IMG/VR virus record: IMGVR_UViG_3300030118_003168
Location: 1-64,000 of that record
Strand: one strand, 5' to 3'
Source of the DNA: an uncultured virus (IMG/VR IMGVR_UViG_3300030118_003168)
Taxonomy: Duplodnaviria; Heunggongvirae; Uroviricota; Caudoviricetes
DNA: 64,000 nucleotides
Shown here: positions 1 through 18,904 of the stretch, piece after piece
Numbering within the stretch: the first letter of the stretch is position 1
Layout: every line of letters begins with the position of its first letter
Program-made: the position numbers and the translations under genes
Notes under the pieces: model-generated
Told to the model about the DNA's origin: nothing
Databases searched by the model: none
The model's input: the letters and a program-made list of their open reading frames with translations, nothing else

Positions 1-29
1 TTAATTCTTCTGTCTCGCTATGTCCATAC

Positions 30-149
30 TCATTCATTTATTTCACCTGCCTTTTCTTGTAGTTCAGTCAAACAAGTATAACAATAAGGTCTTTTCTTAC
101 TGACTACTACATTACAGCCGATACATCTATATTGTGGTTTTATTTTCAT
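30..149 (-). CDS. Small Zn-finger protein (39 aa, MKIKPQYRCIGC...CYTC)
   Basis: Hand-translated; two CxxC motifs; GGAGG RBS upstream. Below the ORF-track cutoff. Confidence 0.6.
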   Translation of the reverse strand: MKIKPQYRCIGCNVVVSKKRPYCYTCLTELQEKAGEINE

Positions 150-160
150 TTTTATTCCTC

Positions 161-280
161 CTAATAATTTTTATAACTTTGTTCATTGTAGCCACAATCT
201 TTACATTGGACTCCTTCATAATTTTCTGTTTCCCATTCAAACATTGTTCCATTACATCTTGGGCATCTATATTGTTTCAT
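161..280 (-). CDS. Small Zn-ribbon protein (39 aa, MKQYRCPRC...CKDCGY)
   Basis: Hand-translated; two CxxC motifs; GGAGG RBS upstream. Confidence 0.65.
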   Translation of the reverse strand: MKQYRCPRCNGTMFEWETENYEGVQCKDCGYNEQSYKNY

Positions 281-282
281 TT

Positions 283-975
283 TTATTCCTCCATTAGTGG
301 CATAGGATATTTTCTAGGCTGAGCATTATTATATGCCCTTGCTCGCCTATTCCATTTGATTGCAAACCAATTACTCGGAAACCAATCAAACGGTTGTCTG
401 TTTTTTCTCCATTCAGCAAATTCCCATTTGCCTTCACGGTAATAATGACGATAGGATTCTATTACATAATCCCATTCATTATATTCAATTCCATACTGAA
501 CTCTTGCAGTATTATAGAATACATCACGGTCTATTCTATATGAATCGTCCATAGCAATAGTTACTGGTGTTAATTTGTTTGTAGGAAATTCATAATCAGC
601 AACAATACTACGGTGTAGAATACAATCAAGGATTCTTTGATGTGTTCCATGTTCTTTATCATAACGATAAGAGTATTCATCACAAAGAGCCAAACCATGT
701 TGATAAAGCCAATCAAAGTTAGCCAAAGATTGCCTCGCCCAAATGGTTGAGGGGTGGTTTAGCATGGCTGGCTTCATTAATTCTGAACCAATCTCTTGAT
801 GAAATGCCTTAAGTTCTTTCAATTGTGGTTCTTTACCGTGTTCTTGAACATATTGCATACAAAGAATATTAGTATGCAACATTTGACAGGTTTCAGTTGG
901 CATTTTGACAATATGCTTGTCAATCATTTGTTGTGCTGATTCTCTCGGACATTTTGATAGTGCGAATATATTCAT
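283..975 (-). CDS. Pyrimidine dimer DNA glycosylase / endonuclease V-like protein
   Basis: MNIF...DKHIVKMPTETCQML, NHPSTIWAR and LCDEYSYRY..H motifs typical of the phage Pyr_excise-like family. Confidence 0.7.
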   Translation of the reverse strand: MNIFALSKCPRESAQQMIDKHIVKMPTETCQMLHTNILCMQYVQEHGKEPQLKELKAFHQEIGSELMKPAMLNHPSTIWARQSLANFDWLYQHGLALCDEYSYRYDKEHGTHQRILDCILHRSIVADYEFPTNKLTPVTIAMDDSYRIDRDVFYNTARVQYGIEYNEWDYVIESYRHYYREGKWEFAEWRKNRQPFDWFPSNWFAIKWNRRARAYNNAQPRKYPMPLMEE

Positions 976-1196
976 TGTTCCATCCCTTCTTGACTGTTTT
1001 CTAAATTGATAATAGTGTTAATTAGTTGCTGTTTTGCTTCTTCATAGTTCTTATTATCTAAATGTAGAATAGCAACATATATCATGCCAACAATGTTTTT
1101 AAGCATAGTATTTACTATTTCTCTTAGTCTATTACATTGTTCTTCTACTGTTCTTTCAATTTCTTCAATCAATTTTCTCTTATCATCATCATTCAT
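972..1196 (-). CDS. Hypothetical protein
   Basis: ORF track; GGAGG RBS; tight overlaps with neighbours. Confidence 0.6.
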   Translation of the reverse strand: MNDDDKRKLIEEIERTVEEQCNRLREIVNTMLKNIVGMIYVAILHLDNKNYEEAKQQLINTIINLENSQEGMEQ

Positions 1197-1354
1197 TTAA
1201 ATAACCTCCTTGCTTCTTCGTATATTTTGTAATGGTCTTTACGACCACTCATATTCTGTATTTTACAATACTCGCTTCTTTGCTTTGCTACTATTACATC
1301 AAGATTCAAGTATTCTTCTTTCCATATTCTAGTTTCTTTAACTACTTCTCTCAT
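1193..1354 (-). CDS. Hypothetical protein (53 aa, MREVVKETRIW...)
   Basis: Hand-translated; fills the gap between operon neighbours with overlapping start/stop codons. Confidence 0.5.
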   Translation of the reverse strand: MREVVKETRIWKEEYLNLDVIVAKQRSEYCKIQNMSGRKDHYKIYEEARRLFK

Positions 1355-1577
1355 TTTCATCTTTCATCACATTTATTTTTATTTTTAAATCTTTTAAACA
1401 ACTAGCACATATTTCTATTTGCATTTCTTCTAATTGTTCTGTTTCTAAATCAACTGCACTCAATGATAATTCATGCGTTGCTTTTAGATAACATACTTTA
1501 CAACGAATTATTTCTTCCGTTGTAAAAGGAATTTTACCTAATAGATTTTTAATCCATTCAAACATATTAATCACCAA
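1338..1577 (-). CDS. Hypothetical Zn-finger protein
   Basis: CKVC and CASC motifs. Confidence 0.55.
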   Translation of the reverse strand: MVINMFEWIKNLLGKIPFTTEEIIRCKVCYLKATHELSLSAVDLETEQLEEMQIEICASCLKDLKIKINVMKDENERSS

Positions 1578-1582
1578 AAGGC

Positions 1583-1661
1583 GGAGGAAAACAAGTCATG
1601 TCTTAGAACCCACACTATTACAGAATGAAGTTTATTTCTTGTTTTTACTGTAAAAACCCCC
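1583..1661 (-). ncRNA. Stem-bulge-stem ncRNA candidate A
   Basis: Minus strand GGGGG-TTTTTACAGTA-AAAACAAG...CTTGTTTT-CCTCC; intergenic; same architecture as B, C, D. Confidence 0.4.
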
Positions 1662-1664
1662 TGT

Positions 1665-1771
1665 GCAGGAAAGTAAGGCTAAAATGACACCAAAATTGCC
1701 GAGGAGCAACCTGTTATACTTCGCAAATAACCGTATGACGGATTTTCCTTACTTTTATTTCATAAACCTGC
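1665..1771 (-). ncRNA. Stem-bulge-stem ncRNA candidate B
   Basis: Minus strand GCAGG-TTTATGAAATA-AAAGTAAGG...CCTTACTTT-CCTGC. Confidence 0.4.
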
Positions 1772-1798
1772 TTATCAACCTAAGCATCAAAGCGAAAC

Positions 1799-1987
1799 TT
1801 AGGGTTGAATAGGTAATTTAGTTTGGTCGGGGTCATAATACCATTTCAAAGGCTTTTGAATGGTTATTTGCACACCCTCACGACTACAACCTAAACAAAT
1901 ATATTTGGTTTCTTCAACCATATTTTGTTCTTCATCTAAGTAATAGTCGTGTCCAATCATTTCTATTTCTTCATGTTTACATATCAT
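1799..1987 (-). CDS. Small Zn-binding hypothetical protein
   Basis: CKH and CLGC motifs; GGTGA RBS. Confidence 0.55.
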   Translation of the reverse strand: MICKHEEIEMIGHDYYLDEEQNMVEETKYICLGCSREGVQITIQKPLKWYYDPDQTKLPIQP

Positions 1988-1996
1988 ATTATCACC

Positions 1997-3445
1997 TTAA
2001 TTTAATTCGGGTCTTGGCCCTACATAAAATAAATTCTTTTTTGCTCTTGTAATTGCAACATAAGCAATATTATTTTCTTCCTGCCCACCCAACGGATGAG
2101 GCATTCTTTCTGTTGCTAGAATATAAACATTATCAGCCTCAAGACCCTTAGCCTTGTGAACTGTTGAAAGCATAATCTCTCCGTTATCTGCATTATCAAA
2201 TACTCTTTTAATTTCATATTTGATTCCACCAACTGTTGTGGCTTTATTTACAAAGATAGCAATACAATCCTTCTTATCTTCTAAAGCAAGTGCTTGTGAT
2301 ATTTTATCAGCCTTGATTAGTTTATTATATTCATAATCAAAGTTATCCATAAACATGCTCCAAAATTCTTCTGTTCCCATATTGTCGTTCTTTGTAATCT
2401 TATCAACAGAAATAATCAATCCTGCCGTCATATCCCTGCCTAAAATATATGCGTTCTTTCCTTGACTAATTAAATCATAGAAAGCACTCACTAAAGGAGC
2501 ATTATACCTACAAAGAACCATATCGTTTGTTTGGGGATTGAACGGTGCATTCTCAATAACTGTTCCGTTGATTGCATCTTTACGAGCATGGAAATCCTTT
2601 ACGAATCTATTCGCCTCTTTAACAACTGATGTTGGGCATCTCCAAGAAATACTTAGAGGAAATTCGCTTATTTCTCTCTCACCAAGTTCAAGGCTCTCGT
2701 AAAACATGCCAATACTGTTTGAGTCAGCCCCTCTAAATCCATAAATTGCTTGATTTTTGTCACCGACAATGATACATCTTCCACCTTTTACGCATTTACG
2801 GATAAGTTCTCTTTGCGCTTCATTAAAATCTTGCGCTTCATCAACAAACATTACATCATAATATGGTAAAGGATAGTTATTTTCTAATGGTAGCCAAATC
2901 ATATCGTCAAAATCAACGATATGAGTCTGTGTTCGGCACATAGTCAGAATTGCAGGAATCGCTTCTAAAGCAATTGCTAATTCTCTATCCGATTGAAAAC
3001 TAATATTGTATTCTTCAATCAAATCCATTATTGCATGTTTATCAGTTCCTTCTGTAAGAGAACCTTTCACTAAAGAAATTAGTTTCTTTAATGGTGTAAC
3101 ATAGAAGTCTTTACCAAGAAGTTCTTTAATGATATTGTTTAGTTTGAATTTATTATAGCGAGTTCTAATTCCTGCTTCTTTTATTGCTGCAAAACCAAAT
3201 GAATGAAATGTTTTTGCTTCAACATCACTTGGCAATCTTTCTGCTAATTCAGTTGCAATAGATTTGTTAAACGCTAGAAAGGCTGCCTTTGTTCCAAAAG
3301 GAAGTCTATTCGCTCCTTCAACAATAGTAAAGGTTTTACCGCAACCTGCACCTGCATTAACAAATACATGGTTATTACTATTCTCTATTGCATTCCATAT
3401 GTTTTCTTGTTCTTCTGTTCCTGTTATCATTTTTATTACCTCCAA
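1997..3445 (-). CDS. UvrD/Rep-like superfamily 1 helicase
   Basis: AGAGCGKT (Walker A), VDEAQD, VGDKNQAIYGFRGA, STVHKAKGLE, YVAITRAK. The true start may be the ATG at 3430. Confidence 0.93.
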   Translation of the reverse strand: MEVIKMITGTEEQENIWNAIENSNNHVFVNAGAGCGKTFTIVEGANRLPFGTKAAFLAFNKSIATELAERLPSDVEAKTFHSFGFAAIKEAGIRTRYNKFKLNNIIKELLGKDFYVTPLKKLISLVKGSLTEGTDKHAIMDLIEEYNISFQSDRELAIALEAIPAILTMCRTQTHIVDFDDMIWLPLENNYPLPYYDVMFVDEAQDFNEAQRELIRKCVKGGRCIIVGDKNQAIYGFRGADSNSIGMFYESLELGEREISEFPLSISWRCPTSVVKEANRFVKDFHARKDAINGTVIENAPFNPQTNDMVLCRYNAPLVSAFYDLISQGKNAYILGRDMTAGLIISVDKITKNDNMGTEEFWSMFMDNFDYEYNKLIKADKISQALALEDKKDCIAIFVNKATTVGGIKYEIKRVFDNADNGEIMLSTVHKAKGLEADNVYILATERMPHPLGGQEENNIAYVAITRAKKNLFYVGPRPELN

Positions 3446-3454
3446 TTAATATTT

Positions 3455-3583
3455 GGGAATAGGTGGCCGAAGGAGGAAAACAAAGTAATTATAGGCAGGA
3501 GGTAATAACTTCCTATAATTACTTGATACTTCCCAAAGTCGCCCCTTATCCTCTACTTCGGCCATGTGTATTTTTGCAAACCC
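3455..3583 (-). ncRNA. Stem-bulge-stem ncRNA candidate C
   Basis: Minus strand GGG-TTTGCAAAAAT...TGGCCGAAG...CTTCGGCCA...CCC, with an internal AAGTAATTATAGG/CCTATAATTACTT stem. Confidence 0.45.
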
Positions 3584-3649
3584 TCCTGAAAATTTCTGTC
3601 AAATTTGACAGACCCTCCTAACAGAAAAGTTGTTAATAATGAATATAAG

Positions 3650-3776
3650 TGAGAGAAAATTGACTTTCAGGGTTTGATTCCTTACTTGCGGGGAAGGTGC
3701 TTATTTCAGCCAGTAGTTCTTATGGAATACCTTTTCTCCGTTATTACTGTCAATTTATTATTTTGCAAAACTCTCA
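3650..3776 (-). ncRNA. Stem-bulge-stem ncRNA candidate D
   Basis: Minus strand TGAGAG-TTTTGCAAAAT-AATAAATTGAC...GTCAATTTT-CTCTCA, followed by the same trailer (CTTATATTCA) as the tRNA. Confidence 0.5.
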
Positions 3777-3788
3777 TGTGAATATAAG

Positions 3789-3873
3789 TGCTGAGAGCAG
3801 GATTTGAACCTGCGAACCAAATGTGGACAGGAGTTTAAGCCCTGCGCTTTTAACCATGCTCAGCCATCTCAGC
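3789..3873 (-). tRNA. trnL: tRNA-Leu (anticodon TAA)
   Basis: Acceptor GCTGAGA/TCTCAGC+A; anticodon arm CAGGG-CTTAAAC-TCCTG; long variable arm; T arm GCAGG-TTCAAAT-CCTGC; CCA not encoded. Confidence 0.93.
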
Positions 3874-4029
3874 GTATTTACTTGAACAAAAAGAAATGAT
3901 TACTAATTATAATCACACGGATGAAAAACCCCACGCTTTGCATACTGTTCAAGTAATATGCGGGTGGCGAGCCGTATATAGTGCGACCCGCAGGGGGTCA
4001 AACATTGATTGAATAAGATTTAATGGTTC

Positions 4030-4281
4030 TCAATTGAACCATGTAAGATAAATGACCCAAGAAATGAGTCCTACGATGATACTTCCCCAAAATAACTTTA
4101 ATCGTAAGTTATTGATGGGATTACATCTTTTTTTCAGACAGTAATGACTGGTTGATATAGTTCCTTTATGCACATAAGTTTCTAAAAGATGATTAGAACC
4201 TTCGGGAATATCAATTCCGCACTTTTGGCATATTTCATCTTTTTCGGCTTTTACATATACTTCTTCAACTAAACGCATCAC
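4030..4281 (-). CDS. Zn-finger protein with C-terminal transmembrane helix
   Basis: CQKC and HYC...C motifs; hydrophobic C-terminus. Confidence 0.6.
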   Translation of the reverse strand: MMRLVEEVYVKAEKDEICQKCGIDIPEGSNHLLETYVHKGTISTSHYCLKKRCNPINNLRLKLFWGSIIVGLISWVIYLTWFN

Positions 4282-4445
4282 TAATCCTCAAAGAATTAAA
4301 AGGGGGGAAACACAGGGGAGCGAACTCCCCCATGTTTCGGCTTTATCAGAATAAATTCTGATAATTCAGTTTAAGAATCCTTAGACTCAAAAACCCCGTT
4401 GTTCAGGTCAAAGACCTGAAGTGCGTCCAAAAACCGCTATTACCT

Positions 4446-4913
4446 TCATTCATCAGATGGCAAAAGGCTTTCAACTGAACCATCCCAGTTTCCGTCCTTA
4501 AACATCTTAGATAGGTTATTACGGGTTCTTTTAACGACTGCTGAAGCATAATCTTCAGCACCCTCGTATGAACCGCCACCACTCTTAATGTGCTTCATGG
4601 TGATTGCACCAATAATTGCATCATGGTTGTAGTATTGAACACTTGCTTCTTCAACAACACCGCAAATGCGGTCAATTGCTACTCTAACGGAAGCAGGAAC
4701 AGCAGATTTTTGACCCCTTCGGAAAGGTGTTCCATCTCTACCCTTTAATAGAGCCTTTAATGCGCCTAAAGCAGCATCTCGCTCATTTGGGTTGTTCTGT
4801 CCTATTTGTAGGTTCAATTCAACAACTTGGCGCAATCCAGCATCCAAAGTCGTGTCGGCTTCAAGGTATTCGTTCACTTCAATAACAAGTGAATCCCATT
4901 GTGTGTTATCCAT
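4446..4913 (-). CDS. Hypothetical protein, distant paralog of 7491 and 9387
   Basis: RRGQKSAVP, GGSY and FKDGNWDGS align with RRGRESALP, GGAY and YKEGRWDGS. Confidence 0.7.
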   Translation of the reverse strand: MDNTQWDSLVIEVNEYLEADTTLDAGLRQVVELNLQIGQNNPNERDAALGALKALLKGRDGTPFRRGQKSAVPASVRVAIDRICGVVEEASVQYYNHDAIIGAITMKHIKSGGGSYEGAEDYASAVVKRTRNNLSKMFKDGNWDGSVESLLPSDE

Positions 4914-5139
4914 GTTTATCTAACTCCCGCCCTTTTGGGCTATACTTACCACATTTGATAGGGTATATAAACAACCCTTTGATAAATCCCTCCGATTTTT
5001 CGTTCAAGCGAAAATACAACTTTTTTCTTAGTTCCCTGTGGGGGACAAGGGGCATTTTCAACGATTCTATTTTGATTAATTGATTTCTATTTAAATCTGT
5101 TAAGATTAATTGAAATGATTTACCTTTTAACAACGGGGC

Positions 5140-5680
5140 GTTGAAAGTGGGAATTTTTCATATGAATTATCACCTTTGAGAAGATTCTCAAGATACGATA
5201 AAGTTAGATTCTTCGCATTTGTGTTGCATAACTGATTAAAAATGGCTGTTTTTGATTGAGGTTTCTCACTTTTCTCGTTTCTCACGATTCTCAATAGGTC
5301 TTTCTGTCTATTACTACATAACCCCTAAGAAACTGATAGCATAAGTAAGAAGAAATTAAGGGGTAAGTAGTAGTAGAAGAATGAATGAATGAATGAGAAA
5401 TGAGAAAATTGAGAAAAGTAAAAAAATATATTACTTATGTCTACATAACCCCTAAGATTCTTGCTTGACTTACATTTCGCACTTGCACAATCGGATGAGA
5501 AACCTAAATTAAATCATTATAATATAATATTAATATTAGAATATGAATACGAATTAATATAAGACCAATTGAAAATAAGATAGAGAAAGAGTAACTATTC
5601 TGAGGGGTGAAAAGTTATCCCTGATAGCAGGAATGAATATACTCTCATTTAGGATAAATCTGCGTTTTATGACGCATTCG
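5140..5680. repeat. AT-rich divergent intergenic region with iteron-like repeats (candidate origin/control region)
   Basis: 17-bp direct repeat CTACATAACCCCTAAGA at 5314-5330 and 5441-5457; clustered TTCTC(A/G) on the left, inverted TGAGAA copies on the right; (GAAT)n run. Confidence 0.5.
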
Positions 5681-5754
5681 CTATCATATGGTTGTAAATT
5701 GCTTTGCAATTAAGACCCTATATGCCGCAATCAGCCCGTTGTTGAAGTGATACT

Positions 5755-6474
5755 ATGTCTATACAATATGTAAGAACAATGAAGATTAATTACGGAGATA
5801 AAATGAACGAACTGGATTTTAACAAACTAAATGGTGCTTTGGCTGAAAAAGGTGTCTATTTGATTGACTCTTTTAGCCGTGTTGATACTGATAATTACGG
5901 TTATGTCCATGTTGAAGAAAACACTACTGTTTATGGAATTGTTATTGAAAATGAAGTCCAATTTACTGTTGATTGGGAAAGCGATGCAAAAATCATTACT
6001 GATGGTCTTTACAACCTTCACAAAGATTGCCACTACAATGAAATTAATACTACTGTTAAAACCCAAAAGTGGGCTGAGCCTGAAGGAACTCAATTACAAT
6101 TTACAATTCCTCTTGACGGTGAAGTTCAAAATTTTGACTGTTGGGGTAATAACCACATTCTTTATGAAAATGGTGCAAAAATGTATGCTTTCCTTGAGAA
6201 TGATTATATCGGAATGGTTTTGCGTTTCCGTGTTGTTTGGGAGCAAGAGAATGTTCAGCGAAAAGAAGCCATTGAAGACGCTATGGTTCAAACCGTTCTA
6301 AATGACATGGGTAAAATACAAAAAGCCGTTGAAAGCCGTCTTAAACTCAAAAAGTTTGGATATAATGTTGAAGAAGTCGGAATTGATTGTCATTTCGATG
6401 CTAAGACCGAATCAAGGTCAGAATGCGCTCCAGACATCATTAAACAAGTTAGGGAGGCAAGAAAGGGTAATTAA
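5755..6474 (+). CDS. Hypothetical protein (cassette 1)
   Basis: 239-aa ORF between palindromes; followed by a CCCC-ACA-GGGGG hairpin. Confidence 0.75.
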   Translation: MSIQYVRTMKINYGDKMNELDFNKLNGALAEKGVYLIDSFSRVDTDNYGYVHVEENTTVYGIVIENEVQFTVDWESDAKIITDGLYNLHKDCHYNEINTTVKTQKWAEPEGTQLQFTIPLDGEVQNFDCWGNNHILYENGAKMYAFLENDYIGMVLRFRVVWEQENVQRKEAIEDAMVQTVLNDMGKIQKAVESRLKLKKFGYNVEEVGIDCHFDAKTESRSECAPDIIKQVREARKGN

Positions 6475-6577
6475 AGCCCTTAAATCCGTAAGACCCCACA
6501 GGGGGCAGGGTTATTGCAAAGCATAACCATATGGTTGTAGTTACTTTGTTATACGGAAACCATATATTTCATTGTTC

Positions 6578-6860
6578 ATGTATTACTGTCGGAAGTCATG
6601 AGCCGACAGGGATTGACTGAATACCCTCAAGGTCGGGGGTAAAGTGCTTGTTTTCGTGTGGTGCGACATATGAACACCTAATGCCCGTATGGGTGAGGGT
6701 TTTCCTCTATGAAAGTGATTAAGGCTCAAAAGGCGCATTCTTACCAAGAATGTTCATAAACAAGGCAGATAGGCTCTTAAGATATAAGAGCGACCTAAAG
6801 TGAGTGCGACCCAATCGTATCTATCTTAGTGATACTCAATTCACTATCCCACCCTTTTTA
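6578..6860 (+). ncRNA. Structured non-coding RNA candidate (cassette 2)
   Basis: No ORF of 60 aa or more; stems CTGTCGG/CCGACAG, CATTCTT/AAGAATG, GCTCTTA/TAAGAGC and long-range TATGAACA/TGTTCATA; cassette promoter upstream and hairpin downstream. Confidence 0.55.
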
Positions 6861-7047
6861 CTCCATTTATGCCCTTAAGCGAAGAGAAAGCGATGATAGA
6901 GGCTGAAAAAGGCACATATGTATAAAAATATCAATTACCATCAAGATACTTCCCTGTGCCCCCTTTTGGGGTTTAATGCAAAGCAACACCATATGGTTTT
7001 AGAATCTTTGATGATAAAACCCTATATCTCACCAATTACCGTTTATC

Positions 7048-7326
7048 ATGTGCAAAGATTGTGTAAGAGCATTGAATACTATTAGCAACGGAATGTCCAA
7101 GTTTCTCCGAGATGGTTTTGAAACCGCTATCATGCGAGATATGTCTCCCGAAATGAATGATGAGGAAGGAATGTTCCATTTGTTCATTTACGAATTGGTT
7201 GCAGAAACAGCGAAGCATGTCATTGATATGACCGTTATGGAGGAATTGACCTCTAAATTAATGGATTCTCTCATGGAGGCCGCTATTGATTCCGAATTAC
7301 GCAGATTCCAAGATAAGCATGCTTGA
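7048..7326 (+). CDS. Hypothetical protein (cassette 3)
   Basis: ATG about 25 nt after CCCTATAT (leaderless); followed by a TGGCGAGG/CCTCGCCA hairpin. Confidence 0.7.
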   Translation: MCKDCVRALNTISNGMSKFLRDGFETAIMRDMSPEMNDEEGMFHLFIYELVAETAKHVIDMTVMEELTSKLMDSLMEAAIDSELRRFQDKHA

Positions 7327-7490
7327 ATCCCTTTGGCGAGGTTTTTCCCTCATTTTTCCCTCGCCATCGGGTTATCAAAGCAAACCATATGGTTGTAAAT
7401 ACTTTGGGTTTACAACCTTATGAATCATTAAATCCCAATATACGCTTCAAGGGGCGAAAGACTTGAAGAACACAACAGGAGGAATATATT

Positions 7491-8030
7491 ATGAAGATTA
7501 AGAACTGGAACATGAATACAAGCAAGGTTCGGGCATGGGCTGAAAACCAACCCGAATCGGATAACTTACAGGCTGTCCTACTTTCTCTCACATTGGGAGA
7601 TAATGCGGCAACTGATGAACTAAGAAGCACTTATTGGACTGCAATTCGTTCAATTGGCAGCACTATGCCTAATTTTCCGAAGGCTCGTCGTGGGAGAGAA
7701 TCAACGCTTACCGACAATCAAGAAATTGTATTGGCGACTGTGGAGGAAAAAGTAGCGGCTGCTTATGCATCAATCCCTACTGAATACCATGACATTCTAT
7801 TGTCTGTAATCGTCCCACACGGGCGAACTGGTGGAGTTTACGCCAGTATTGATGATATGGTCGCAAATTACAAGAAACAAGCACATAACTACATTATGCA
7901 GTCATTGAAAGACGGTAGAGTGGCTTTGACTGATGAAGGCGAATTTGACCTTGATAAGTCAGGTATGCTACAAATCACCCCTCGTCCAACTAAAGACGAG
8001 GATTCCGAAGGAGGTTCGGAAGACGAGTGA
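7491..8030 (+). CDS. Hypothetical protein (cassette 4), paralog of 9387
   Basis: Shares RSTYWTAIRSIGS, FPKARRGRES and PHGRTGG with the 9387 protein; GGAGG RBS. Confidence 0.85.
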   Translation: MKIKNWNMNTSKVRAWAENQPESDNLQAVLLSLTLGDNAATDELRSTYWTAIRSIGSTMPNFPKARRGRESTLTDNQEIVLATVEEKVAAAYASIPTEYHDILLSVIVPHGRTGGVYASIDDMVANYKKQAHNYIMQSLKDGRVALTDEGEFDLDKSGMLQITPRPTKDEDSEGGSEDE

Positions 8031-8142
8031 TTCGGCAAGGATTTCGCCCCTTGTCGCCCCTTGCGGGGGGTTTACACAAAGTAAAACCATATGGTAGGGC
8101 TTTGTTCTACCTTACGATATATCACCGATTTTAACGGTTATC

Positions 8143-8427
8143 ATGCGAAAGATTACAGAAGACGCAATAAGAGCATTTAGAAACAGACAAGAATTTAAGC
8201 GAGGAAATACTGAAGTTAGGGTTTTTGGGCATCTTTGCCAACTTCGCCTTCATGGAAATGTTATCGCTGAAGATAAAGACGGAGAATTGTGGATTACATC
8301 GGCAGGTTGGGAATCAAACACTACAAAAGAGAGACTTAACGGTTTACCTACTGTTTCAATCCATCAAAAGGATTACCAATGGTATTTAAACGGTAATGTA
8401 TGGGATGGGGAATGGATATTAATTTAA
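8143..8427 (+). CDS. Conserved phage hypothetical protein (cassette 5)
   Basis: GNTEV, LHGNVIA and GWESNTTKERLN motifs that I recognise from small phage proteins. Confidence 0.75.
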   Translation: MRKITEDAIRAFRNRQEFKRGNTEVRVFGHLCQLRLHGNVIAEDKDGELWITSAGWESNTTKERLNGLPTVSIHQKDYQWYLNGNVWDGEWILI

Positions 8428-8603
8428 GGAATACTGTGGAGAGCGTTTTTGATTGTTTTCGCTCAGGTAATGGAGCCACGCATAGGGTAAATGTGCAAAT
8501 AGCCGAAATAAAAAACAATCCCCGCCTTTGGGTAAAGACAAAGCAATACCATATGGTTGCACTTTGAGCAACCCTATACATACTACTCATTTAATCGTAT
8601 ATC

Positions 8604-8924
8604 ATGGCTAACCAATACAATGTTGCACTTTGCGCTGGACGACACGAAATTAAGACAAATGGGGGAGTTAGTGTCCCTAATGCTATTTATGAGCATATTC
8701 AGAACCCTATGGATTTTGATTTCCTAGAAGGTCGTGCTAGTGATTTTATATATCATTTGGAAGATAATAATGTTGAGATTCTAAATCTCTACATTACTGG
8801 TTTAACTCCAGCATTAACCTCATTTTTGGCATTAGCAAGCAATTGGGAGGGAAAAATTACATTGTGGCACTTTGACCGTGATTCTTTCACTTATATGCCT
8901 CAATACTTTCAAAACTGGATGTAA
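8604..8924 (+). CDS. Hypothetical protein, possible CARF/Rossmann-like fold (cassette 6)
   Basis: LCAGRHEI, LYITGLTPAL and LWHFDR motifs; fold assignment is inference only. Confidence 0.6.
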   Translation: MANQYNVALCAGRHEIKTNGGVSVPNAIYEHIQNPMDFDFLEGRASDFIYHLEDNNVEILNLYITGLTPALTSFLALASNWEGKITLWHFDRDSFTYMPQYFQNWM

Positions 8925-9006
8925 TCCGCCCCTTCGGGGGTATTACCAAAGATACTACCATATGCTTTGTAAGAGAGTGGTTAAGCGACGGATTCGGCCT
9001 ATTACC

Positions 9007-9249
9007 ATGCGAGCAACCCTAACAAGCGATTTATTCCACAAAGGAAGCGAGAAACTGGTTATCAAGACCTGTGCCGAGATGTTGAACTATATGCCCCAAA
9101 TTTACGGGTTTATCAAAGATATCGGGGTTGAAGCCAAATTGACCTCAAATATGTATGATGCCAGCATTGTCATTCGTGGCGAGACACTTATGCCAAACAT
9201 TGACAAAATCGTCAGATTCATTGAAAGTCATGGCTGGCAAAAGAATTAG
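9007..9249 (+). CDS. Hypothetical protein (cassette 7)
   Basis: Start re-placed at ATG 9007 (MRATLTSDLF), downstream of the palindrome at 8947. Confidence 0.65.
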   Translation: MRATLTSDLFHKGSEKLVIKTCAEMLNYMPQIYGFIKDIGVEAKLTSNMYDASIVIRGETLMPNIDKIVRFIESHGWQKN

Positions 9250-9386
9250 GGCTTGCGCCCGCCTTTACAAAGCATATGGTTGTAATCGCTTTGCGCTTGT
9301 GTAATTACAACCTTATCCGTCATTTGGTTGGTATTAGTGCTTCGGAAGGCATTGAGGCAGATTTCCCCTTATTGGAGGTAATTATT

Positions 9387-9893
9387 ATGAATGAAAAGAA
9401 TTGGATAAAAAACACAAGTGAAGTCAGTCTATGGCTTGAAAAGGAAGATAGAGGTGATAATGGCAAGGCTATTGAATTGTCTATTATGCTCGGAAACAAC
9501 AGTAATGACGACGATATGCGTTCAACCTATTGGACGGCTATTAGGTCTATTGGGAGCGTTTATGCGGATTTCCCAAAAGCCCGTCGAGGTCGAGAATCTG
9601 CTTTGCCCGACGAAGTGGAGCAAAATGCGATTTCTGTGAAGAATGCGGTTTACGCTGCCTTTGCGGGTATTTCTAACCAAGATGTCGTTTTGGCTGCGGT
9701 TTTGCCACATGGTAGAACTGGCGGTGCTTATGCTGATATTGACGCATTGGCTACCCATTACGCCAAGCAAGCGTATAATGCGCTTGTAAAGGGCTACAAA
9801 GAAGGTCGTTGGGATGGTTCTATGAACGGTGAAATCCCGACAATGACCCCACCTGCTGTTAAATCAGCCGAAGGAGGTCAAGAGGAAGAATGA
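9387..9893 (+). CDS. Hypothetical protein (cassette 8), paralog of 7491
   Basis: GGAGG RBS before ATG 9387; shared motifs with the 7491 protein. Confidence 0.85.
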   Translation: MNEKNWIKNTSEVSLWLEKEDRGDNGKAIELSIMLGNNSNDDDMRSTYWTAIRSIGSVYADFPKARRGRESALPDEVEQNAISVKNAVYAAFAGISNQDVVLAAVLPHGRTGGAYADIDALATHYAKQAYNALVKGYKEGRWDGSMNGEIPTMTPPAVKSAEGGQEEE

Positions 9894-9913
9894 TGCGGAA
9901 ATGCCTTCCGTCG

Positions 9914-9930
9914 CCCCCTTCGGGGGGTTT
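9914..9930 (+). terminator. GC hairpin CCCCC-TTCG-GGGGG-TTT ending cassette 8 (similar hairpins end the other cassettes)
   Basis: Related hairpins at about 6494, 6959, 7334, 8057, 8520, 8929 and 9249. Confidence 0.55.
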
Positions 9931-10333
9931 CCTCTACGATGGCAAAGCCAAACCATATGGTTGTTGTAATGTATATATAGACTATATATGGTTCATTATA
10001 GACGCTAAATGGATTATTTAGGGATGTATGACTCGGAACATAACATTTAACAGTTGCGTGATGCGTTCTATAGAAATCTATTCAAATAGCGCATATAATT
10101 CTATTCGATGAAATAAATCTATATATATTGCAATTTATCTCAATAGACTATATACAACCATATGGCTTTGTTTCAAATTTTTTATTTTTGTTCATTTAAA
10201 TGAATAAGCATTAATTAATCAATTTTAAACCAAAAAGCATTTATTCCACTACTTTAAAACATTAATTAGTTTAGATTAAAGGTTATTCCGAGCATATTAT
10301 ATGCTATGACTTCCACCCATTAAGTGATACAGT

Positions 10334-10564
10334 ATGTCTGCCGAGAAACAGGCATTAACTTATTTAGATGAGATATTCACCATAATACGAGAAACCCTTG
10401 AAGATGCTAAACAAAACAGAAAAGATGCTAGACAACTTACTAATTCAGAAGAAAAGGCTTTACAAGAAATATTAAAGAAGATTAAACTAATATCAAAGAA
10501 TTTAGACGATTATCTTAAACAGTTTAGAATACAAACTTCATTATACGATTTTAAAGAAGATTAA
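10334..10564 (+). CDS. Hypothetical coiled-coil protein
   Basis: ORF track. Confidence 0.6.
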   Translation: MSAEKQALTYLDEIFTIIRETLEDAKQNRKDARQLTNSEEKALQEILKKIKLISKNLDDYLKQFRIQTSLYDFKED

Positions 10565-10718
10565 ATATACTTATTTAAACTATTATAATTAAACTATATG
10601 TTTTTATTCTGGGAATATAAATCTATATAAAAAAATAAAAACGCAAGTGCCAAATAAATTCCGCCACAAAATTTTGAGATTTTTTTTATTATAACGAATT
10701 AACAGGAAAAGGATTAAT

Positions 10719-12026
10719 ATGGAAGATTGGCAAAAAGATATTATGGATGCAATTGAATCAGGTAGATGGCAAGCCGAAGATTTAAGCGATATTGCTGTTC
10801 CAAGAGCAAAAGTAAAATCTATTCCTGTTAATGATATGGAGTTTATTCTTGATATTGTGTATTTTGCCGCTAGAGAATTAAGAGGAAAGAAATTAACTCC
10901 TGAACATAAAGAATTACTTGATGAATATGATGATGTTCTAAGAAATCAAGGAATGAAGGGTTTTCACGATGCTAATGTTCAAACTCACGCTTTTAATAGA
11001 GATGAAGATACTGATGCAAGAGATGAAAAATACTATCCAAATGACCCATTACACTATGAATCAAAAAGACCCGATGTTTTTAAAAAAAGTTGGACTGATA
11101 TTCTAAAAACACCTTATCCTAATCATATGTTAAATAGAAAGGCAAGGGGCGGAAGAAGAATTAGAAGGGGAACTGGAAGGGGCGGTTTATTCAAATATAA
11201 CGAAATTGATGAAATATTAGAAGCCCGTGTTACTCCTTTAATTGATGCTCGCTATGAACAAGAAATTGAGAAGAAAACTCGTCAAAGTATTAGAGAAGCA
11301 AAAAAGCGTCTTAAAGAAAGTAATAAAGAGTTTACTGATATTTTAAAGGACTATATTACTCGTAAGGTTAGAAAGGTTTTACTTAAGCAGAAAGAAAACA
11401 ATTTATACGCTACTGCATATGGAGATTATGCAAAAAGCGGTATGGGCTTCAAAAGTGCAGGAAAGTGGTTCGCTGGAGGATTAAGTGCATTAGGCTATAA
11501 TCCCGAAGATGAACAACAAATGAGTTATGTTTTGAGAAGAGTTCACGGAATTGCTAGACAATACTTCAATGATTGGAAATCTAAGAAAGAAAAAGAAGAA
11601 GAAGAATCAGACGAAGAAGAAGGTGATGAATTGGTTAAATCATGGATTAATATAATTAAGAAAGAATCTTGGTATGATAAACAAGTTAAGCAGCAAATAG
11701 ACGCAAAAAAGCAAGAGCGTCAAGCCCATGTTAAAAAGCACCCATTTACTAAAGATTACCGATATGGCCGTTGTCAGGCAAATGATGGAACAGGCTGTAT
11801 TAGAAATCTACAAAGTCCTGAAAGAAGGTCATATGCTGGTTCAAAACCCGATGGTAGAACTTGCATGTATTGTGAGGATGACCATTACAAATACGGTGAT
11901 GTTCCTAAAGAAATTTGGAGTTCTGAACAATGGAAAAAGGGCGACAAAGAAACAAGAAGCAAGATGTTGGATAAATATGTTAAAAGAAATCCAAGATACG
12001 ATATGCGAAACTTTGAACCATTTTGA
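10719..12026 (+). CDS. Hypothetical multi-segment protein with internal WxxILK motifs
   Basis: Internal KSWTDILK and KSWINIIK; Cys/His cluster near the C-terminus. Confidence 0.75.
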   Translation: MEDWQKDIMDAIESGRWQAEDLSDIAVPRAKVKSIPVNDMEFILDIVYFAARELRGKKLTPEHKELLDEYDDVLRNQGMKGFHDANVQTHAFNRDEDTDARDEKYYPNDPLHYESKRPDVFKKSWTDILKTPYPNHMLNRKARGGRRIRRGTGRGGLFKYNEIDEILEARVTPLIDARYEQEIEKKTRQSIREAKKRLKESNKEFTDILKDYITRKVRKVLLKQKENNLYATAYGDYAKSGMGFKSAGKWFAGGLSALGYNPEDEQQMSYVLRRVHGIARQYFNDWKSKKEKEEEESDEEEGDELVKSWINIIKKESWYDKQVKQQIDAKKQERQAHVKKHPFTKDYRYGRCQANDGTGCIRNLQSPERRSYAGSKPDGRTCMYCEDDHYKYGDVPKEIWSSEQWKKGDKETRSKMLDKYVKRNPRYDMRNFEPF

Positions 12027-12034
12027 GGGATATT

Positions 12035-12142
12035 ATGACAAGGTGTAAATTATTAGATGCGTGGCTCGATGTTCAATCAAAGAAGATTGATGAAAAAGAA
12101 AAGAAAACAGGAAAGGATATTATAGCAGGTGTTTTGAAATGA
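12035..12142 (+). CDS. Small hypothetical protein (35 aa, MTRCKLLDAW...)
   Basis: Hand-translated; GAGGG RBS; ATGA overlap with the next gene. Confidence 0.5.
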   Translation: MTRCKLLDAWLDVQSKKIDEKEKKTGKDIIAGVLK

Positions 12143-12513
12143 ATTGGCAGAATATTTTAAAGAATGACGAAAGAGAAGACTTAGAAATTAAGTTAGAACA
12201 ATTAGTTGAAGATTGGGGAAGAAACCAAGATATTAGCGACTTTGAATACTTTGCTGATAGAAACGGCCCAAATCTTGATGGAGTTGAAATTGATGTTACT
12301 TTTGAAGATATGTATGAAGGTGAAGAAGATTTATCCCAAGAAGAAAAATTGGAAGAAGATGTTGGTTATTACCGAATAGATTTCCGTAGCGGAGGATATG
12401 AAGAATTTGCTATGGGTGATTACACTTACAATAATGGATTTGAAATGCATGAATTTAATCCTGAAAAATTAGACATTAACGAATTAAAAGCAGCCGTGAG
12501 GGGATTACAATGA
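12139..12513 (+). CDS. Acidic protein with WxxILK leader
   Basis: N-terminus MNWQNILK. Confidence 0.75.
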   Translation: MNWQNILKNDEREDLEIKLEQLVEDWGRNQDISDFEYFADRNGPNLDGVEIDVTFEDMYEGEEDLSQEEKLEEDVGYYRIDFRSGGYEEFAMGDYTYNNGFEMHEFNPEKLDINELKAAVRGLQ

Positions 12514-12659
12514 GTTGGAGAGATATAGTAAGAAAGAACAAACCAGATTTTTTGGATTTAGATAAAGATGGCGATAAGAAAGAGCCGATGAAAGAAGCGG
12601 CTAAAGATGCTAAAAAGAAGAAACCTAAATCTAAAAATCCGTTTACAAGGAAGGATTGA
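12510..12659 (+). CDS. Small protein with leader variant and DxDxDG motif (49 aa)
   Basis: Hand-translated MSWRDIVRKNKPDFLDLDKDGDKKEPMKEAAKD...; ATGA overlap. Confidence 0.65.
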   Translation: MSWRDIVRKNKPDFLDLDKDGDKKEPMKEAAKDAKKKKPKSKNPFTRKD

Positions 12660-12661
12660 AA

Positions 12662-12886
12662 ATGTCTTGGAGAAACCTATTGAAGTCTGATGCTCAAGAA
12701 GTAGTAGATAATATAGGTGAATTAAGAGATATTTTGGAAGACTTAGATGAAGTAGTTAGAAGTTTCAATTCTGGAGAAATGATAGACTCAAAAGAATTAA
12801 GAAGCACTTTAGAAGATTATGTTTCTCGTAGCATGAAAGTTCAAAGTGCCTTTTCACAAATGGTAAGAAGAATAGCGAGGTCTTAA
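12662..12886 (+). CDS. Helical protein with WxxILK leader
   Basis: N-terminus MSWRNLLK. Confidence 0.7.
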   Translation: MSWRNLLKSDAQEVVDNIGELRDILEDLDEVVRSFNSGEMIDSKELRSTLEDYVSRSMKVQSAFSQMVRRIARS

Positions 12887-12887
12887 T

Positions 12888-13748
12888 ATGAAATGGTTTG
12901 ATATTATTAAAGTAGAAGACATTGACTTTGACAAAGATTTACAGGCTTTTGGTCAATATGGAGAAGGAATAGATGTTAGTAACCGACAGGATATGGACAA
13001 ATTAATGAATAAATTAATAATGAGTTCTGTATTTCAAAGTAAACAACCCGACATAAAGGATTTTGTTAAAGAAAAAATTAGAATTAACCATGTAAGAATT
13101 TACGACTATCTTAAAGAAAAGTTAGGACGAGAACCAACAGATAAACAATTAATTGATTTCATTACAAGAACAATTATGCATGAAGGAACTCATGCTGCTA
13201 TGGGTTCAGAACAAGATTCAATGGCGGAACATCAAGCAGAATATGGAGCATTTACAGGACAATTCCCTGAAAGCACCTATATTAGATTATTAAATTTTGT
13301 TAAACACCCTGCTACAAGAAGAATGCTTTTCCCACCTGAACTAGCGGCTATGTTTAATATGAACATGAAAGATATTAGGCGAACTCCCGATATTATTGAA
13401 AAGGTTGAAGAACTTCTTGCTTATGTTGATGGAATAACTGAAGATATACCATCAGGTAAAAGTAAAGATTCAATGAAAGAAAAACTGACTCGTTTAGAAA
13501 TAACAGCGAGACAAAAGGGAGAACCTATTGTTAGAGAGTGGCCTCATCAAAATATTAAAGAATATTACAGGTTTGCATTGAAACGCTATGGTGATGAAAA
13601 TAAAGAATTATTAGATACTTTAGCAAGAGCAAATGGACTTGACCCTAATGAATTAAAAGCGGCTATGGCGGTAACTACTACTTCTGCACCGACAATGTTC
13701 AATAGAAAGGTTGTGCGAGGAAGAAAAAAGAAAAAGAGGGATGATTGA
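12888..13748 (+). CDS. Putative zincin metallopeptidase with WxxILK leader
   Basis: MKWFDIIK; IMHEGTHAAMG (HExxH) with a downstream AEYGA. Confidence 0.6.
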   Translation: MKWFDIIKVEDIDFDKDLQAFGQYGEGIDVSNRQDMDKLMNKLIMSSVFQSKQPDIKDFVKEKIRINHVRIYDYLKEKLGREPTDKQLIDFITRTIMHEGTHAAMGSEQDSMAEHQAEYGAFTGQFPESTYIRLLNFVKHPATRRMLFPPELAAMFNMNMKDIRRTPDIIEKVEELLAYVDGITEDIPSGKSKDSMKEKLTRLEITARQKGEPIVREWPHQNIKEYYRFALKRYGDENKELLDTLARANGLDPNELKAAMAVTTTSAPTMFNRKVVRGRKKKKRDD

Positions 13749-14893
13749 TGGTAAAAGAAAAGAAAAACTTTAATCCTTTTAAGGGCAACAAAGTGAATCA
13801 AAAATTGAAAAATTCTCGCTTTGTTGAAGAATTTAATACTTGGAGAGATAATTGTAAAGGTATAGGAAGTGGTGATTTATACACAAAGAATGTGCCTAAT
13901 CTATATATGTTTTTAAGAAGACATTTTGTTGCTCCTTTTGTTAGAGCAGGTAGCCGAAATAAACCAATAGAAGGAGAAGGAGTAAATGAATTATTAACTA
14001 TTATTGAAAAGGCAGTTGATGATGATTTGTTTACTGTTGGGAATGCAAAGATTATCAAGCAGTTAGCAGTTGTATTAAAAGAATATAAAGATACAGGAGA
14101 AGATGCTGGCGGAGAGGGTATTGCTGCTGACCCTGCATTTATTTTGTTTACTGAAAAAGTAAAAGGTAGGGGCGGTCAAAAATTAAGAGATAGAAAAGTT
14201 CAAGGACACTATAATAGAGCCGCACCTAAAGATTGGTTTGCAGGAAACAATGCACCCCATCAAGCGTTATTCTCAGAAACTTCTACTAAATATGCAAAAC
14301 CGAGAGGATTGTTATACATCATGGAAGACGCTACAAAGGAATTTGATAACCGCAATACAGATGGATTTGCTGACATTGAACTTGAAATAGATTCAATTCC
14401 AGATGATTTTGATGCAGAAGACTTTGAAGAAATTAGTGCAATTGAAAAGTATTTTGATGCAGTAGTTAGAAACACAGCCTTTTGGAGTGCTGGAGGAAGA
14501 TTACAAGTTCCTAAGTTAAGAAAAGATTTTCAAAGTCAAACTTTCAGACTAACTGAAAAAGACCAAGAAATTATTAGAGATTTAGCAAGATTAGGTAAAA
14601 GAGATGACCCTAACGCAATTGCAGGAAAAGTGACTGAATTTAAATTAACTGCTACTGCTTTACCTTTAATTACTTTGGTTGATAGAGCCTTAAGAAGAAA
14701 AGGAACTAATAAAGCCCCTAACGGTTATAGAGCGTGGCAAAATTCAAGAAAGACTGGTTTTGATTATAGAAAAACTGCAAGGGAAGTTTATGGCACTAAA
14801 GAGCGTCCTAAGAGTGGAAAAGGAAGTAGGACTAGAATGAAACCAGAATCAAGAGTTATTTCTAAAATGTGGCAAATGAATCTTTGGAGATGA
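13745..14893 (+). CDS. Hypothetical protein
   Basis: 382-aa ORF in the operon. Confidence 0.75.
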   Translation: MMVKEKKNFNPFKGNKVNQKLKNSRFVEEFNTWRDNCKGIGSGDLYTKNVPNLYMFLRRHFVAPFVRAGSRNKPIEGEGVNELLTIIEKAVDDDLFTVGNAKIIKQLAVVLKEYKDTGEDAGGEGIAADPAFILFTEKVKGRGGQKLRDRKVQGHYNRAAPKDWFAGNNAPHQALFSETSTKYAKPRGLLYIMEDATKEFDNRNTDGFADIELEIDSIPDDFDAEDFEEISAIEKYFDAVVRNTAFWSAGGRLQVPKLRKDFQSQTFRLTEKDQEIIRDLARLGKRDDPNAIAGKVTEFKLTATALPLITLVDRALRRKGTNKAPNGYRAWQNSRKTGFDYRKTAREVYGTKERPKSGKGSRTRMKPESRVISKMWQMNLWR

Positions 14894-14897
14894 TACT

Positions 14898-16311: not shown

Positions 16312-16312
16312 A

Positions 16313-16633: not shown

Positions 16634-16634
16634 A

Positions 16635-18902: not shown

Positions 18903-18904
18903 TA

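Follow-up and report, generated by a model that had tools for sequence, protein, structure and literature searches.

Organization of the RNA cassette

The window analysed here is a 64,000-nucleotide (nt) stretch of DNA, positions 1 to 64,000 of the 73.7-kb IMG/VR virus record IMGVR_UViG_3300030118_003168, which belongs to an uncultured member of the Caudoviricetes. Between 6.5 and 10.2 kb it carries an array of small cassettes, at least seven of which are headed by a common frame consisting of a G+C hairpin, a palindrome, the motif CTTTG, a TATA-like box and a start approximately 20 nt further on. In one cassette of this array the place of a protein-coding gene is taken by a structured RNA of 268 nt, homologous to manA RNA (Rfam RF01745) and conserved in related viral contigs.

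A preliminary description of the window, made from the sequence alone, had placed a structured non-coding RNA in a cassette at 6549–6978. Each element of the cassette frame that it listed was present when 5800–7800 was re-read, and the ATG at 6578, read from the sequence, opens seven codons only before a TGA. The proposal of an RNA in place of a protein is supported, as a conserved small open reading frame (ORF), which would have spoken for a protein, was looked for among the relatives and none was found. Of the suggested size of roughly 280–400 nt, the conserved core accounts for 268 nt; approximately 400 nt would be reached if the conserved tail and hairpin downstream belong to the transcript.

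A conserved fold with covarying helices

Relatives were traced by two routes, from the protein whose gene immediately precedes the RNA and with a motif specific to the subfamily, for which viral, metagenome and genome contigs were scanned. After removal of duplicates they comprise 14 distinct sequences of 271–280 nt, which fall into two subgroups; the record G001 (96,129 bases, rated 100% complete) is 97% identical to the window across the region. Among the relatives of the upstream protein, RNA-bearing contigs were found at 4 of 10 loci (L238 through its DNA identity with L250, and L239–L241 through Rfam), and at the six more distant loci (L242–L247) a manA match was absent within 3 kb. Variant features occurred in 12 of 43 metagenome loci and in 1 of 22 genome-contig loci. 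Searches of a phage collection by blastn with 6480–7000 and by megablast with 1–20000 returned no DNA similarity, and a family search of the virus’s own genome gave a single, truncated local match (24.4 bits, 6587–6710). The pattern GACTGAATAC...TAARGTG...GTGGTG matched G001 only. The patterns GGGANTGACTGAATA and GGGANTGACTGAATAB occurred at no fewer than 120 and 113 loci, respectively, and after motif filtering the matches listed for both scans were classical manA copies together with G001 as the single representative of the window subfamily.

The 14-sequence alignment was folded with RNAalifold into a structure of 74 pairs, in which 99.7% of cells are paired and 28 pairs are changed on both sides. 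Its covariation score of 0.382, compared with 0.140 in shuffled alignments, was reached by none of 500 shuffles, and in a control in which the pairing partners were slid by 1–3 columns, 3–8 pairs were changed on both sides. The collection of homologues and covariation test that the preliminary description had recommended revealed a conserved structure. Many G–U pairs are conserved, which on the opposite strand would be C–A mismatches, identifying the plus strand as the RNA strand. The folding energy of the single sequence is modest (z = −1.71 for the plus and −0.59 for the minus strand), and the stems exceed chance because of their covariation and homology rather than their thermodynamics.

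The GGGA strand of the helix enclosing the entire fold and the UGACUGAAUA junction following it are invariant in all 14 relatives and agree with the Rfam consensus GGGaGUGaCUGAAUA. In P3, the pair at alignment columns 36/62 is A–U in eight relatives and U–A in six, and both-sided changes affect three of the seven pairs of the helix closing the P4 multi-stem domain. The P6 segment, located between two invariant blocks, folds as one hairpin of 34–36 nt in every relative, with base stems that covary (GAACA/UGUUC, CCAAUG/CAUUGG and CAGUUU/AAACUG); a linker, CUCUAUGAAAG, is likewise invariant in the window subfamily. A new helix of four base pairs (bp) encloses P7 together with an extra hairpin, and the helices of this added junction (helices 9–11) contain two, one and four pairs changed on both sides. 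The corresponding counts for the helices of P8 (helices 12–14) are four, two and five, in a stretch that the Rfam alignment accommodates as 43 nt inserted at the tip of P8. The one helix of the RNAalifold structure without support, the 3-bp GAG/CUC (6695–6697/6705–6707), never covaries, clashes with the covarying enlarged P6 and was dropped.

All five stems named in the preliminary description are complementary as written, and they differ in how well they survive comparison. The stem 6586–6592/6603–6609 corresponds to P1 and is conserved; the pairing of CTTGTTT with AAACAAG (6647–6653/6758–6764) is the helix that closes the multi-stem domain. The stem drawn at 6736–6742/6746–6752 is P7, but its conserved register is 6735–6740/6748–6753, which leaves a 7-nt loop containing ACCA. 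The stem 6773–6779/6785–6791 is conserved as well, but not with its TAGG/CCTA extension, in place of which the consensus pairs 6768–6772 with 6821–6825. The long-range pairing of 6669–6676 with 6751–6758 is a perfect complement over at least 7 nt in just 8 of the 14 relatives and competes with better-supported helices.

Table 1 Features of the RNA cassette, in window coordinates.
Feature	Position	Strand	Remarks
Inverted repeat CAAAG-N-AACCATATGGTT-N-CTTTG	6517–6548	+	Cassette head; core palindrome AACCATATGGTT at 6525–6536
TATA-like box CCATATAT	6560–6567	+	Putative archaeal-type promoter element
Core structured RNA	6588–6855	+	Enlarged manA-type fold, 268 nt; Rfam, covariation, RNA-library contigs
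P1 hairpin	6587–6608	+	6587–6592 with 6603–6608; C–G to U–A swap in 97%-identical G001
GGGA, 5′ strand of closing helix of whole fold	6609–6612	+	Pairs with UCCC 6847–6850; followed by invariant UGACUGAAUA junction
P3	6616–6645	+	6616–6618 with 6643–6645; 6622–6628 with 6635–6641
P4 multi-stem domain	6647–6764	+	Closed by CUUGUUU 6647–6653 with AAACAAG 6758–6764
P5 hairpin, L5 loop GUGGUG	6654–6666	+	UGGU 6659–6662 complementary to ACCA 6743–6746
Enlarged P6	6671–6704	+	34-nt irregular hairpin in place of the 16–20-nt GNRA-capped hairpin of classical manA
Added three-way junction	6715–6757	+	Helix 6715–6718/6754–6757; hairpin 6724–6726/6732–6734; P7 6735–6740/6748–6753, L7 UUACCAA
Enlarged branched P8	6768–6825	+	Stem 6768–6772/6821–6825; hairpins 6773–6778/6786–6791 and 6804–6809/6815–6820
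P9 hairpin	6827–6846	+	6827–6832 with 6841–6846; 2 pairs changed on both sides
UCCC, 3′ strand of closing helix	6847–6850	+	
T5 run	6856–6860	+	Abuts fold; likely 3′ end, putative oligo-T termination
Conserved non-coding 3′ tail module (GCCCUUAAGCGA...AAAGCGAUGAUAGAGGC...)	6861–6957	+	
Cassette-end hairpin	6959–6974	+	CCCCC 6959–6963, UUUU, GGGG 6968–6971, then UUU

Relationship to manA RNA

A permissive Rfam scan of 6300–7200 aligned 6587–6855 (plus strand) end to end with the manA covariance model at a significant score (RF01745; 52.4 bits, E = 2.2e-12, model positions 1–192 of 192), and three relatives matched the same model over its full length at 53.3, 43.7 and 41.9 bits (E = 7.7e-11 to 1.9e-7). 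This contradicts the preliminary description, in which the RNA had not been recognised as belonging to a known family; the Infernal search against Rfam that it advised finds the family with a permissive threshold, but the default threshold misses the RNA, and a scan of the window at the gathering threshold returned a tRNA-Leu only and nothing at 6587–6855.

The alignment retains P1, the GGGA/UCCC closing helix, the UGACUGAAUA junction, the P3 hairpin with the UAAAGUG that follows it, the CUUGUUU/AAACAAG helix, the small hairpin with the GUGGUG loop, P8, P9 and the UCCCACC end; an ACCA-type loop and the order of helices from P1 to P9 are also common to the window RNA and manA. The core of P1, GGGA/UCCC, UGACUGAAUA and P3 followed by UAAgGUG is invariant, or nearly so, in the 14 relatives. 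Relative to manA there is a 5-nt deletion after AAUA, and 75 and 43 extra bases are placed at the tips of P6 and P8, which are sites of variable-length insertions in the Rfam alignment. Both RNAs are marine and viral. They differ in dimensions, the window subfamily measuring 268–280 nt and scoring 42–53 bits, whereas classical manA RNAs in IMG/VR viral contigs are 186–204 nt long and score 125–195 bits. They differ also in architecture, the subfamily having a long P6, a P7 nested in a new helix with an extra hairpin, and a three-way junction in P8; and in their carriers, a magrovirus-like virus (see below) as opposed to T4-like cyanophages or a gamma-proteobacterium. We consider it very probable that the RNA in the window is a manA-type structured RNA. 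Since it scores below the membership threshold and lacks two architectural features of the family, it is a divergent, previously unrecognised relative of manA rather than an ordinary member.

The 2010 description of manA (Weinberg et al., PMC2864571) put it forward as a candidate riboswitch located in the 5′ untranslated regions (UTRs) of cyanophage and marine genes, and a 2023 paper on cyanophages describes its role as still unverified (PMC9964418). Among the papers listed by literature searches on manA, none connected it with archaeal viruses. Rfam files the family as type Cis-reg; unlike an RNA of that type, the window RNA does not stand ahead of a gene, and what comes after it is a T-run with a non-coding tail, then a hairpin and the promoter of the following cassette. 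Classical copies were collected from IMG/VR with the core motif, and a manA match was obtained in 13 of 20 scanned loci and in none of the other 7. At the 13 loci, an ORF starts 18–31 nt downstream in five cases, and a terminator-like hairpin, identified by eye, comes first in seven; terminator-like hairpins with a T-run within approximately 60 nt, before the next ORF, are present at L015, L017, L033, L043, L044, L064 and L068. Many classical manA copies may also be stand-alone RNAs or coupled to terminators. The classical manA RNA on the IMG/VR contig of L043 is followed, 100 nt further downstream, by a match resembling the Glutamine-II riboswitch (772–828; 31.5 bits, below the cut-off of 33).

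Promoter-like frame and probable transcription

The TATA-like 8-mer (CCATATAT/C, CCCTATAC, CCTTATTT or CCTTATAA) stands exactly 19 nt 5′ of the P1 strand in 15 of 15 copies, separated from it by a spacer of variable sequence. In the protein cassettes the ATG lies 20–21 nt 3′ of the box, and in the RNA cassette P1 occupies the place of this ATG. A spacing of approximately 20 nt from box to start is expected for archaeal TATA-dependent, leaderless transcription, and the 20–21 nt found in the protein cassettes points to leaderless mRNAs. The ATG context TTATCATG recurs at this distance past the box in the protein cassettes at 6932–7062, 8030–8160 and 8492–8622; the cassette at 7377–7491 is an exception, with a leader of approximately 70 nt and an AGGAGG ahead of its ATG. 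A scan for sigma-70 promoters found promoter-like sites without excess (20, compared with 22.1 expected). The inverted repeat at the cassette head, presumably the site to which a dimeric regulator would bind, has a counterpart of the same type at the head of the RNA cassette in every relative.

The T-run 3′ of the fold is T4–T5 in most relatives and no more than TATT in L296. The next cassette (gene 7048–7326) has its own palindrome, TATA-like box and ATG, and in the subgroup of the window no ORF lies 3′ of the RNA within the cassette. Because of the fixed spacing of the box, the T-run, the separate promoter of the next cassette and the absence of a conserved ORF, the RNA is read as an independent unit, and it is probably transcribed as such.

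Logan contigs of at least 88% likeness, from four metatranscriptome runs of one study, cover 6588–6857, so that the region is present in RNA-library contigs, where the preliminary description had suggested looking for it. The contig records start at 6588 in three runs and end at 6853–6857 in all four, and variant contigs of the second subgroup also occur in these RNA libraries. Positions 6400–6587 and 6858–7400 had no contig cover, and this was not counted as evidence. In a few contigs from the RNA libraries, 6853–6855 is followed directly by 6716, 6725 or 6743 of the same strand, in one case after an added C; as a guess, such junctions might stem from template switching at a native 3′ end or from fragments that became circular. 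In one contig, an internal stretch of a variant runs into 6588.

Complementary loops of P5 and P7

When unpaired columns of the alignment were searched for further covariation, pairing between the loops of P5 and P7 (L5 and L7) was the sole extra helix, besides two discounted 3-bp candidates. The pairing segments are UGGU/ACCA in one half of the 14 sequences and UAGU/ACUA in the other half; L284 and L288 have ACCG, which gives a G–U pair. In terms of the loops, GUGGUG accompanies ACCA, ACCG or UCCA in seven relatives, and GUAGUG accompanies ACUA in seven.

According to a preprint of July 2026 (10.64898/2026.07.01.735769), manA RNAs form pentamer-based octamers, decamers and a 60-mer cage, as visualised by cryo-electron microscopy. 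An L5–L7′ kissing loop is common to both architectures detailed there, peripheral helices set the geometry, and one variant uses a contact between a GNRA L6 and a receptor. By our own mapping, GUGGUG and ACCA would be the L5–L7′ intermolecular kissing pair of that preprint. As in the homo-oligomers, L5/L7 complementarity is kept in the window subfamily, where it covaries, and a conserved core is combined with variable peripheral helices (10.64898/2026.07.01.735769). The GNRA L6 and the L8–L9 partners of the homo-oligomers are not recognisable in the subfamily, and any assembly would have to proceed via other secondary contacts.

The virus and its probable host

PHROGs and Pfam searches of the window virus identified a terminase, a portal, a protease, a capsid protein, a tail tube, a tape measure, a UvrD-like helicase and an ATP-dependent ligase. 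All six matches of the capsid protein in the phage collection were to viruses of Haloarcula, Methanomassiliicoccales and Methanofastidiosa (22–27% identity), and the capsid protein clusters hold 849 relatives, many of them on contigs of 90–97 kb. The family-B polymerase is split into ORFs of approximately 550 and 300 amino acids (aa) in G000 and G001, and there are two ATP-dependent ligases, one at 33161–35680 of the window and a three-domain enzyme in G001 (L327:17954–19483). G001 also encodes an ERCC4–HhH nuclease, a chaperonin (Cpn60_TCP1, 149 bits) and an RFC-like AAA ATPase with a weak match to Rep_fac_C.

Magroviruses are described as having a capsid protein whose only similarity is to those of haloarchaeal tailed viruses, together with an archaeal-type replisome, a sliding clamp, RFC, an archaeo-eukaryotic primase, MCM, a RadA-like ATPase, one or two ATP-dependent ligases, chaperonins and genomes of approximately 100 kb, and group B1 among them has a split family-B polymerase (Philosof et al. 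2017, PMC5434244). The capsid affinity described for these viruses is found here, and so is the combination of polymerase, ligases, chaperonin and a size of approximately 100 kb. The virus looks like a magrovirus, and an archaeal virus with an archaeal host is likely; the published link of magroviruses to marine group II archaea is itself an inferred one in that account (PMC5434244). A 310-aa ORF of G001 (L328:6335–7267) has a TFIIB zinc-ribbon match of 25.9 bits, below the cut-off of 29, and could be a virus-encoded TFB-like factor acting on the cassette promoters.

Interpretation and alternatives

In the explanation that we favour, 6588–6855 (plus strand) would encode a stand-alone viral non-coding RNA of approximately 268 nt, a manA homologue with three enlargements: the long P6, the extra helix and hairpin around P7, and the branched P8. 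This RNA would fill one slot in the accessory-cassette array of a magrovirus-like virus of approximately 96 kb, which probably infects a marine group II archaeon. It would be transcribed from the cassette’s own TATA-like promoter, starting at approximately 6588 and ending at the T-run at 6856–6860, and because of this promoter and these ends it would not be the leader of a gene. It may act by RNA–RNA self-association through kissing of L5 (GUGGUG) with L7 (ACCA), and its changed peripheral helices would give a geometry different from that of classical manA. Self-association is the best-supported mechanism because of the L5–L7 covariation and the stand-alone context; that the RNA indeed acts by self-assembly is a tentative proposal to which we give a little less than an even chance, and any role in infection is equally conditional. 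As the best explanation taken as a whole, this account is held with slight preference, and a stand-alone, self-associating viral RNA is the most likely identity when set against a riboswitch.

Several observations weigh against this account. As regards the family, the window RNA falls 2.8 bits short of the gathering score of 55.2 bits, so that it is outside the membership cut-off, and a wide gap separates its 52.4 bits from the scores of classical copies. The short GNRA-capped P6 is not present, nor is a P7 adjoining the 3′ strand of P4; the tips of P6 are GUAU, UAAU, AAAA or GUAA and lack a GNRA sequence in 13 of the 14 relatives. As regards the transcript, the contigs are uninformative on RNA ends, strand and level, they come from a single study, and RNA libraries may contain DNA; these contigs support the transcript without proving it. 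A variant contig of the L256/L280 type extends 37 nt past the 3′ end and, together with the conserved tail, indicates that the transcript may be longer than 268 nt. As regards the loops, a counterpart of L8–L9′ or a partner for L9 was searched for by eye and not found; the double change in L5 and L7 separates two clades and may represent a single event; and the covariation is compatible with pairing within a molecule and between molecules alike. The mapping of L5 to GUGGUG, L6 to GNRA and L7 to ACCA derives from the order of hairpins in the Rfam consensus and from L6 being GNRA, and the assemblies in the preprint were obtained in vitro from concentrated RNA in the presence of Mg2+, with no evidence from cells given there (10.64898/2026.07.01.735769).

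The archaeal assignment has to accommodate further findings of this kind. In G001, Pfam gave no match to PCNA_N, Rad51 or DNA_primase_S, for which it is possibly too insensitive, and the match to MCM (15.9 bits) is below the cut-off. Over the 1,418 bases fetched, a 14.8-kb contig (L322) in a metagenome-assembled genome (MAG) labelled Altibacter sp. (Flavobacteriaceae) has the same sequence as the window and matches G001 at 96% identity; its place in that MAG could be a binning error or a hint at the host. The neighbouring cassette gene at 8143–8427 belongs to the Pfam family Kyano_Gp96 and has homologues in 405 bacterial phage records, mostly of Synechococcus and Prochlorococcus cyanophages and Pseudomonas phages, with the best matches listed at 50–56% identity. 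This gene suggests cassette traffic between bacterial and archaeal viruses.

Were the RNA a cis-acting riboswitch or attenuator, a ligand would decide between stopping at the T-run and reading through into the tail and the gene at 7048–7326. manA was put forward in such a role in 5′ UTRs (PMC2864571), the T-run directly adjoins the closing helix, the tail is conserved, and one variant RNA contig reads on past the 3′ end. The alternative pairing of 6669–6676 with 6751–6758 would break P6, P7 and the added helix, and where it is possible, in 8 of 14 relatives, the two subgroups maintain it with different sequences; in the remaining 6 it is absent or at most 6 nt long. The next gene, however, has a palindrome, a TATA-like box and an ATG at leaderless spacing of its own, a G+C hairpin lies between the two units, and the cassette of the window’s subgroup has no ORF 3′ of the RNA. 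Nor is a ligand known for any manA RNA, the family still being a candidate in PMC2864571 and PMC9964418. We regard a riboswitch as unlikely. An RNA that acts as a monomer on a protein of the host or the virus, binding or titrating it as a decoy or scaffold with its conserved loops as protein contacts, would fit an apparently stand-alone transcript found in RNA libraries and the invariant junctions UGACUGAAUA and CUCUAUGAAAG, and many viral structured RNAs do bind or titrate proteins. Against such contacts stands the matching of a G-to-A change in L5 by a C-to-U change in L7, which is expected for RNA–RNA pairing, and classical manA assembles without protein (10.64898/2026.07.01.735769); this function appears distinctly unlikely.

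The possibilities that dispense with a functional RNA are both very improbable. Small ORFs do exist in the window, at 6578 (7 codons), 6869–6925 (18 codons), 6918–7085 (55 codons) and, on the minus strand, 6583–6747 (54 codons), and in 11 of the 14 relatives a minus-strand frame of 40–54 codons is open over the 5′ half. Stops interrupt all six frames of the core, however, in nearly every relative, and substitutions track base-pair partners, not codons. The ATG at 6578 lies upstream of the start of the RNA contigs; that at 6869 is lost (AAG) in L284 and L288, with +1 indels in L254, L284 and L291; a 1-nt deletion in G001 shifts the frame of 6918–7085; and the minus-strand ORF is missing or no longer than 34 codons in L254 and L296. 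A structure that functions in the DNA itself, as a signal for recombination or replication of a mobile cassette while any RNA is incidental, would be in line with the shuffling of cassettes between relatives, in which the position of the RNA relative to a 239-aa gene varies: it is approximately 110 nt downstream in the window, approximately 480 nt downstream in L239 and 1.5–2.5 kb upstream in L240 and L241. Such a signal is contradicted by the conserved G–U pairs, which work on one strand only, by the homology to a known RNA family and the presence in RNA-library contigs, and by the nature of the repeated boundary element, which is the shared palindrome and not the RNA region.

Comparison with known systems and significance

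The cassettes are analogous in their logic to the PeSL cassettes of T4-type phages, small accessory units that are reportedly framed by an early sigma-70 promoter and a stem–loop, and they are not members of that class. Both have a repeated frame of promoter and hairpin and are shuffled between related viruses. The frame in the window consists of a palindrome centred on CCATATGG and a TATA-like box with leaderless spacing instead of an early sigma-70 promoter; one slot holds an RNA gene instead of an ORF, and the virus is not T4-like. The subfamily suggests that RNA genes are carried around in the very shuffled cassettes that also hold genes for accessory proteins. ROOL, GOLLD and OLE, structured non-coding RNAs that are often borne by phages or prophages and form RNA-only multimers, are much longer than the window RNA and unrelated to it in sequence and fold, and no result of this analysis connects them with it.

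A function for manA has been lacking since 2010, during which time the family has been filed as a cis-regulator, and the 2026 preprint describes RNA-only cages in vitro with no biological context given there (10.64898/2026.07.01.735769). The window subfamily provides a natural case of a manA-type RNA that is apparently transcribed as a unit by itself, there being no gene for it to control, and adds its presence in ocean RNA libraries. It also keeps the kissing-loop pair through compensatory change, which, together with the stand-alone unit, favours assembly over the riboswitch reading. The family now reaches viruses whose probable hosts are marine group II archaea; to our knowledge, few structured RNAs have been described for such viruses. 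Because all its members lie under the Rfam gathering score, standard annotation misses the whole subfamily; the 14-sequence alignment could seed a new covariance model.

A broader possibility, which we hold to be speculative and on balance doubtful, is that the manA fold serves viruses of bacteria and of archaea alike as a self-assembling RNA particle. Magroviruses would then make abundant free copies of the enlarged RNA from an archaeal-type promoter, L5–L7 pairing would build a closed assembly sized by P6 and P8, and the gene would have moved between cyanophage and archaeal-virus cassettes, a movement at which the Kyano_Gp96 gene nearby hints. If this were true, manA would never have been a riboswitch.

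Other features of the locus

The 3′ tail module is kept in all 12 relatives for which downstream sequence is available, and its ORFs are not conserved. It includes a direct repeat, AAGCGA...AAGCGAUGAUAG, inside a stem that covaries (GCC/GGC versus GGUG/CACC). G+C hairpins equivalent to that at the end of the RNA cassette terminate the neighbouring cassettes. In the second subgroup, an additional module of approximately 175 nt is located between the manA-type fold and the shared tail (L240:1524–1700; also in L252, L255, L256, L280, L293 and L295). This module begins with its own CCATATGG and TATA-like ACCATATAG box, its hairpins covary between relatives, and it may be a second small RNA gene. 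Elsewhere in the window, the minus strand encodes the tRNA-Leu at 3788–3873 (anticodon TAA), which has a long variable arm; a tRNA-Leu is also present in L239.

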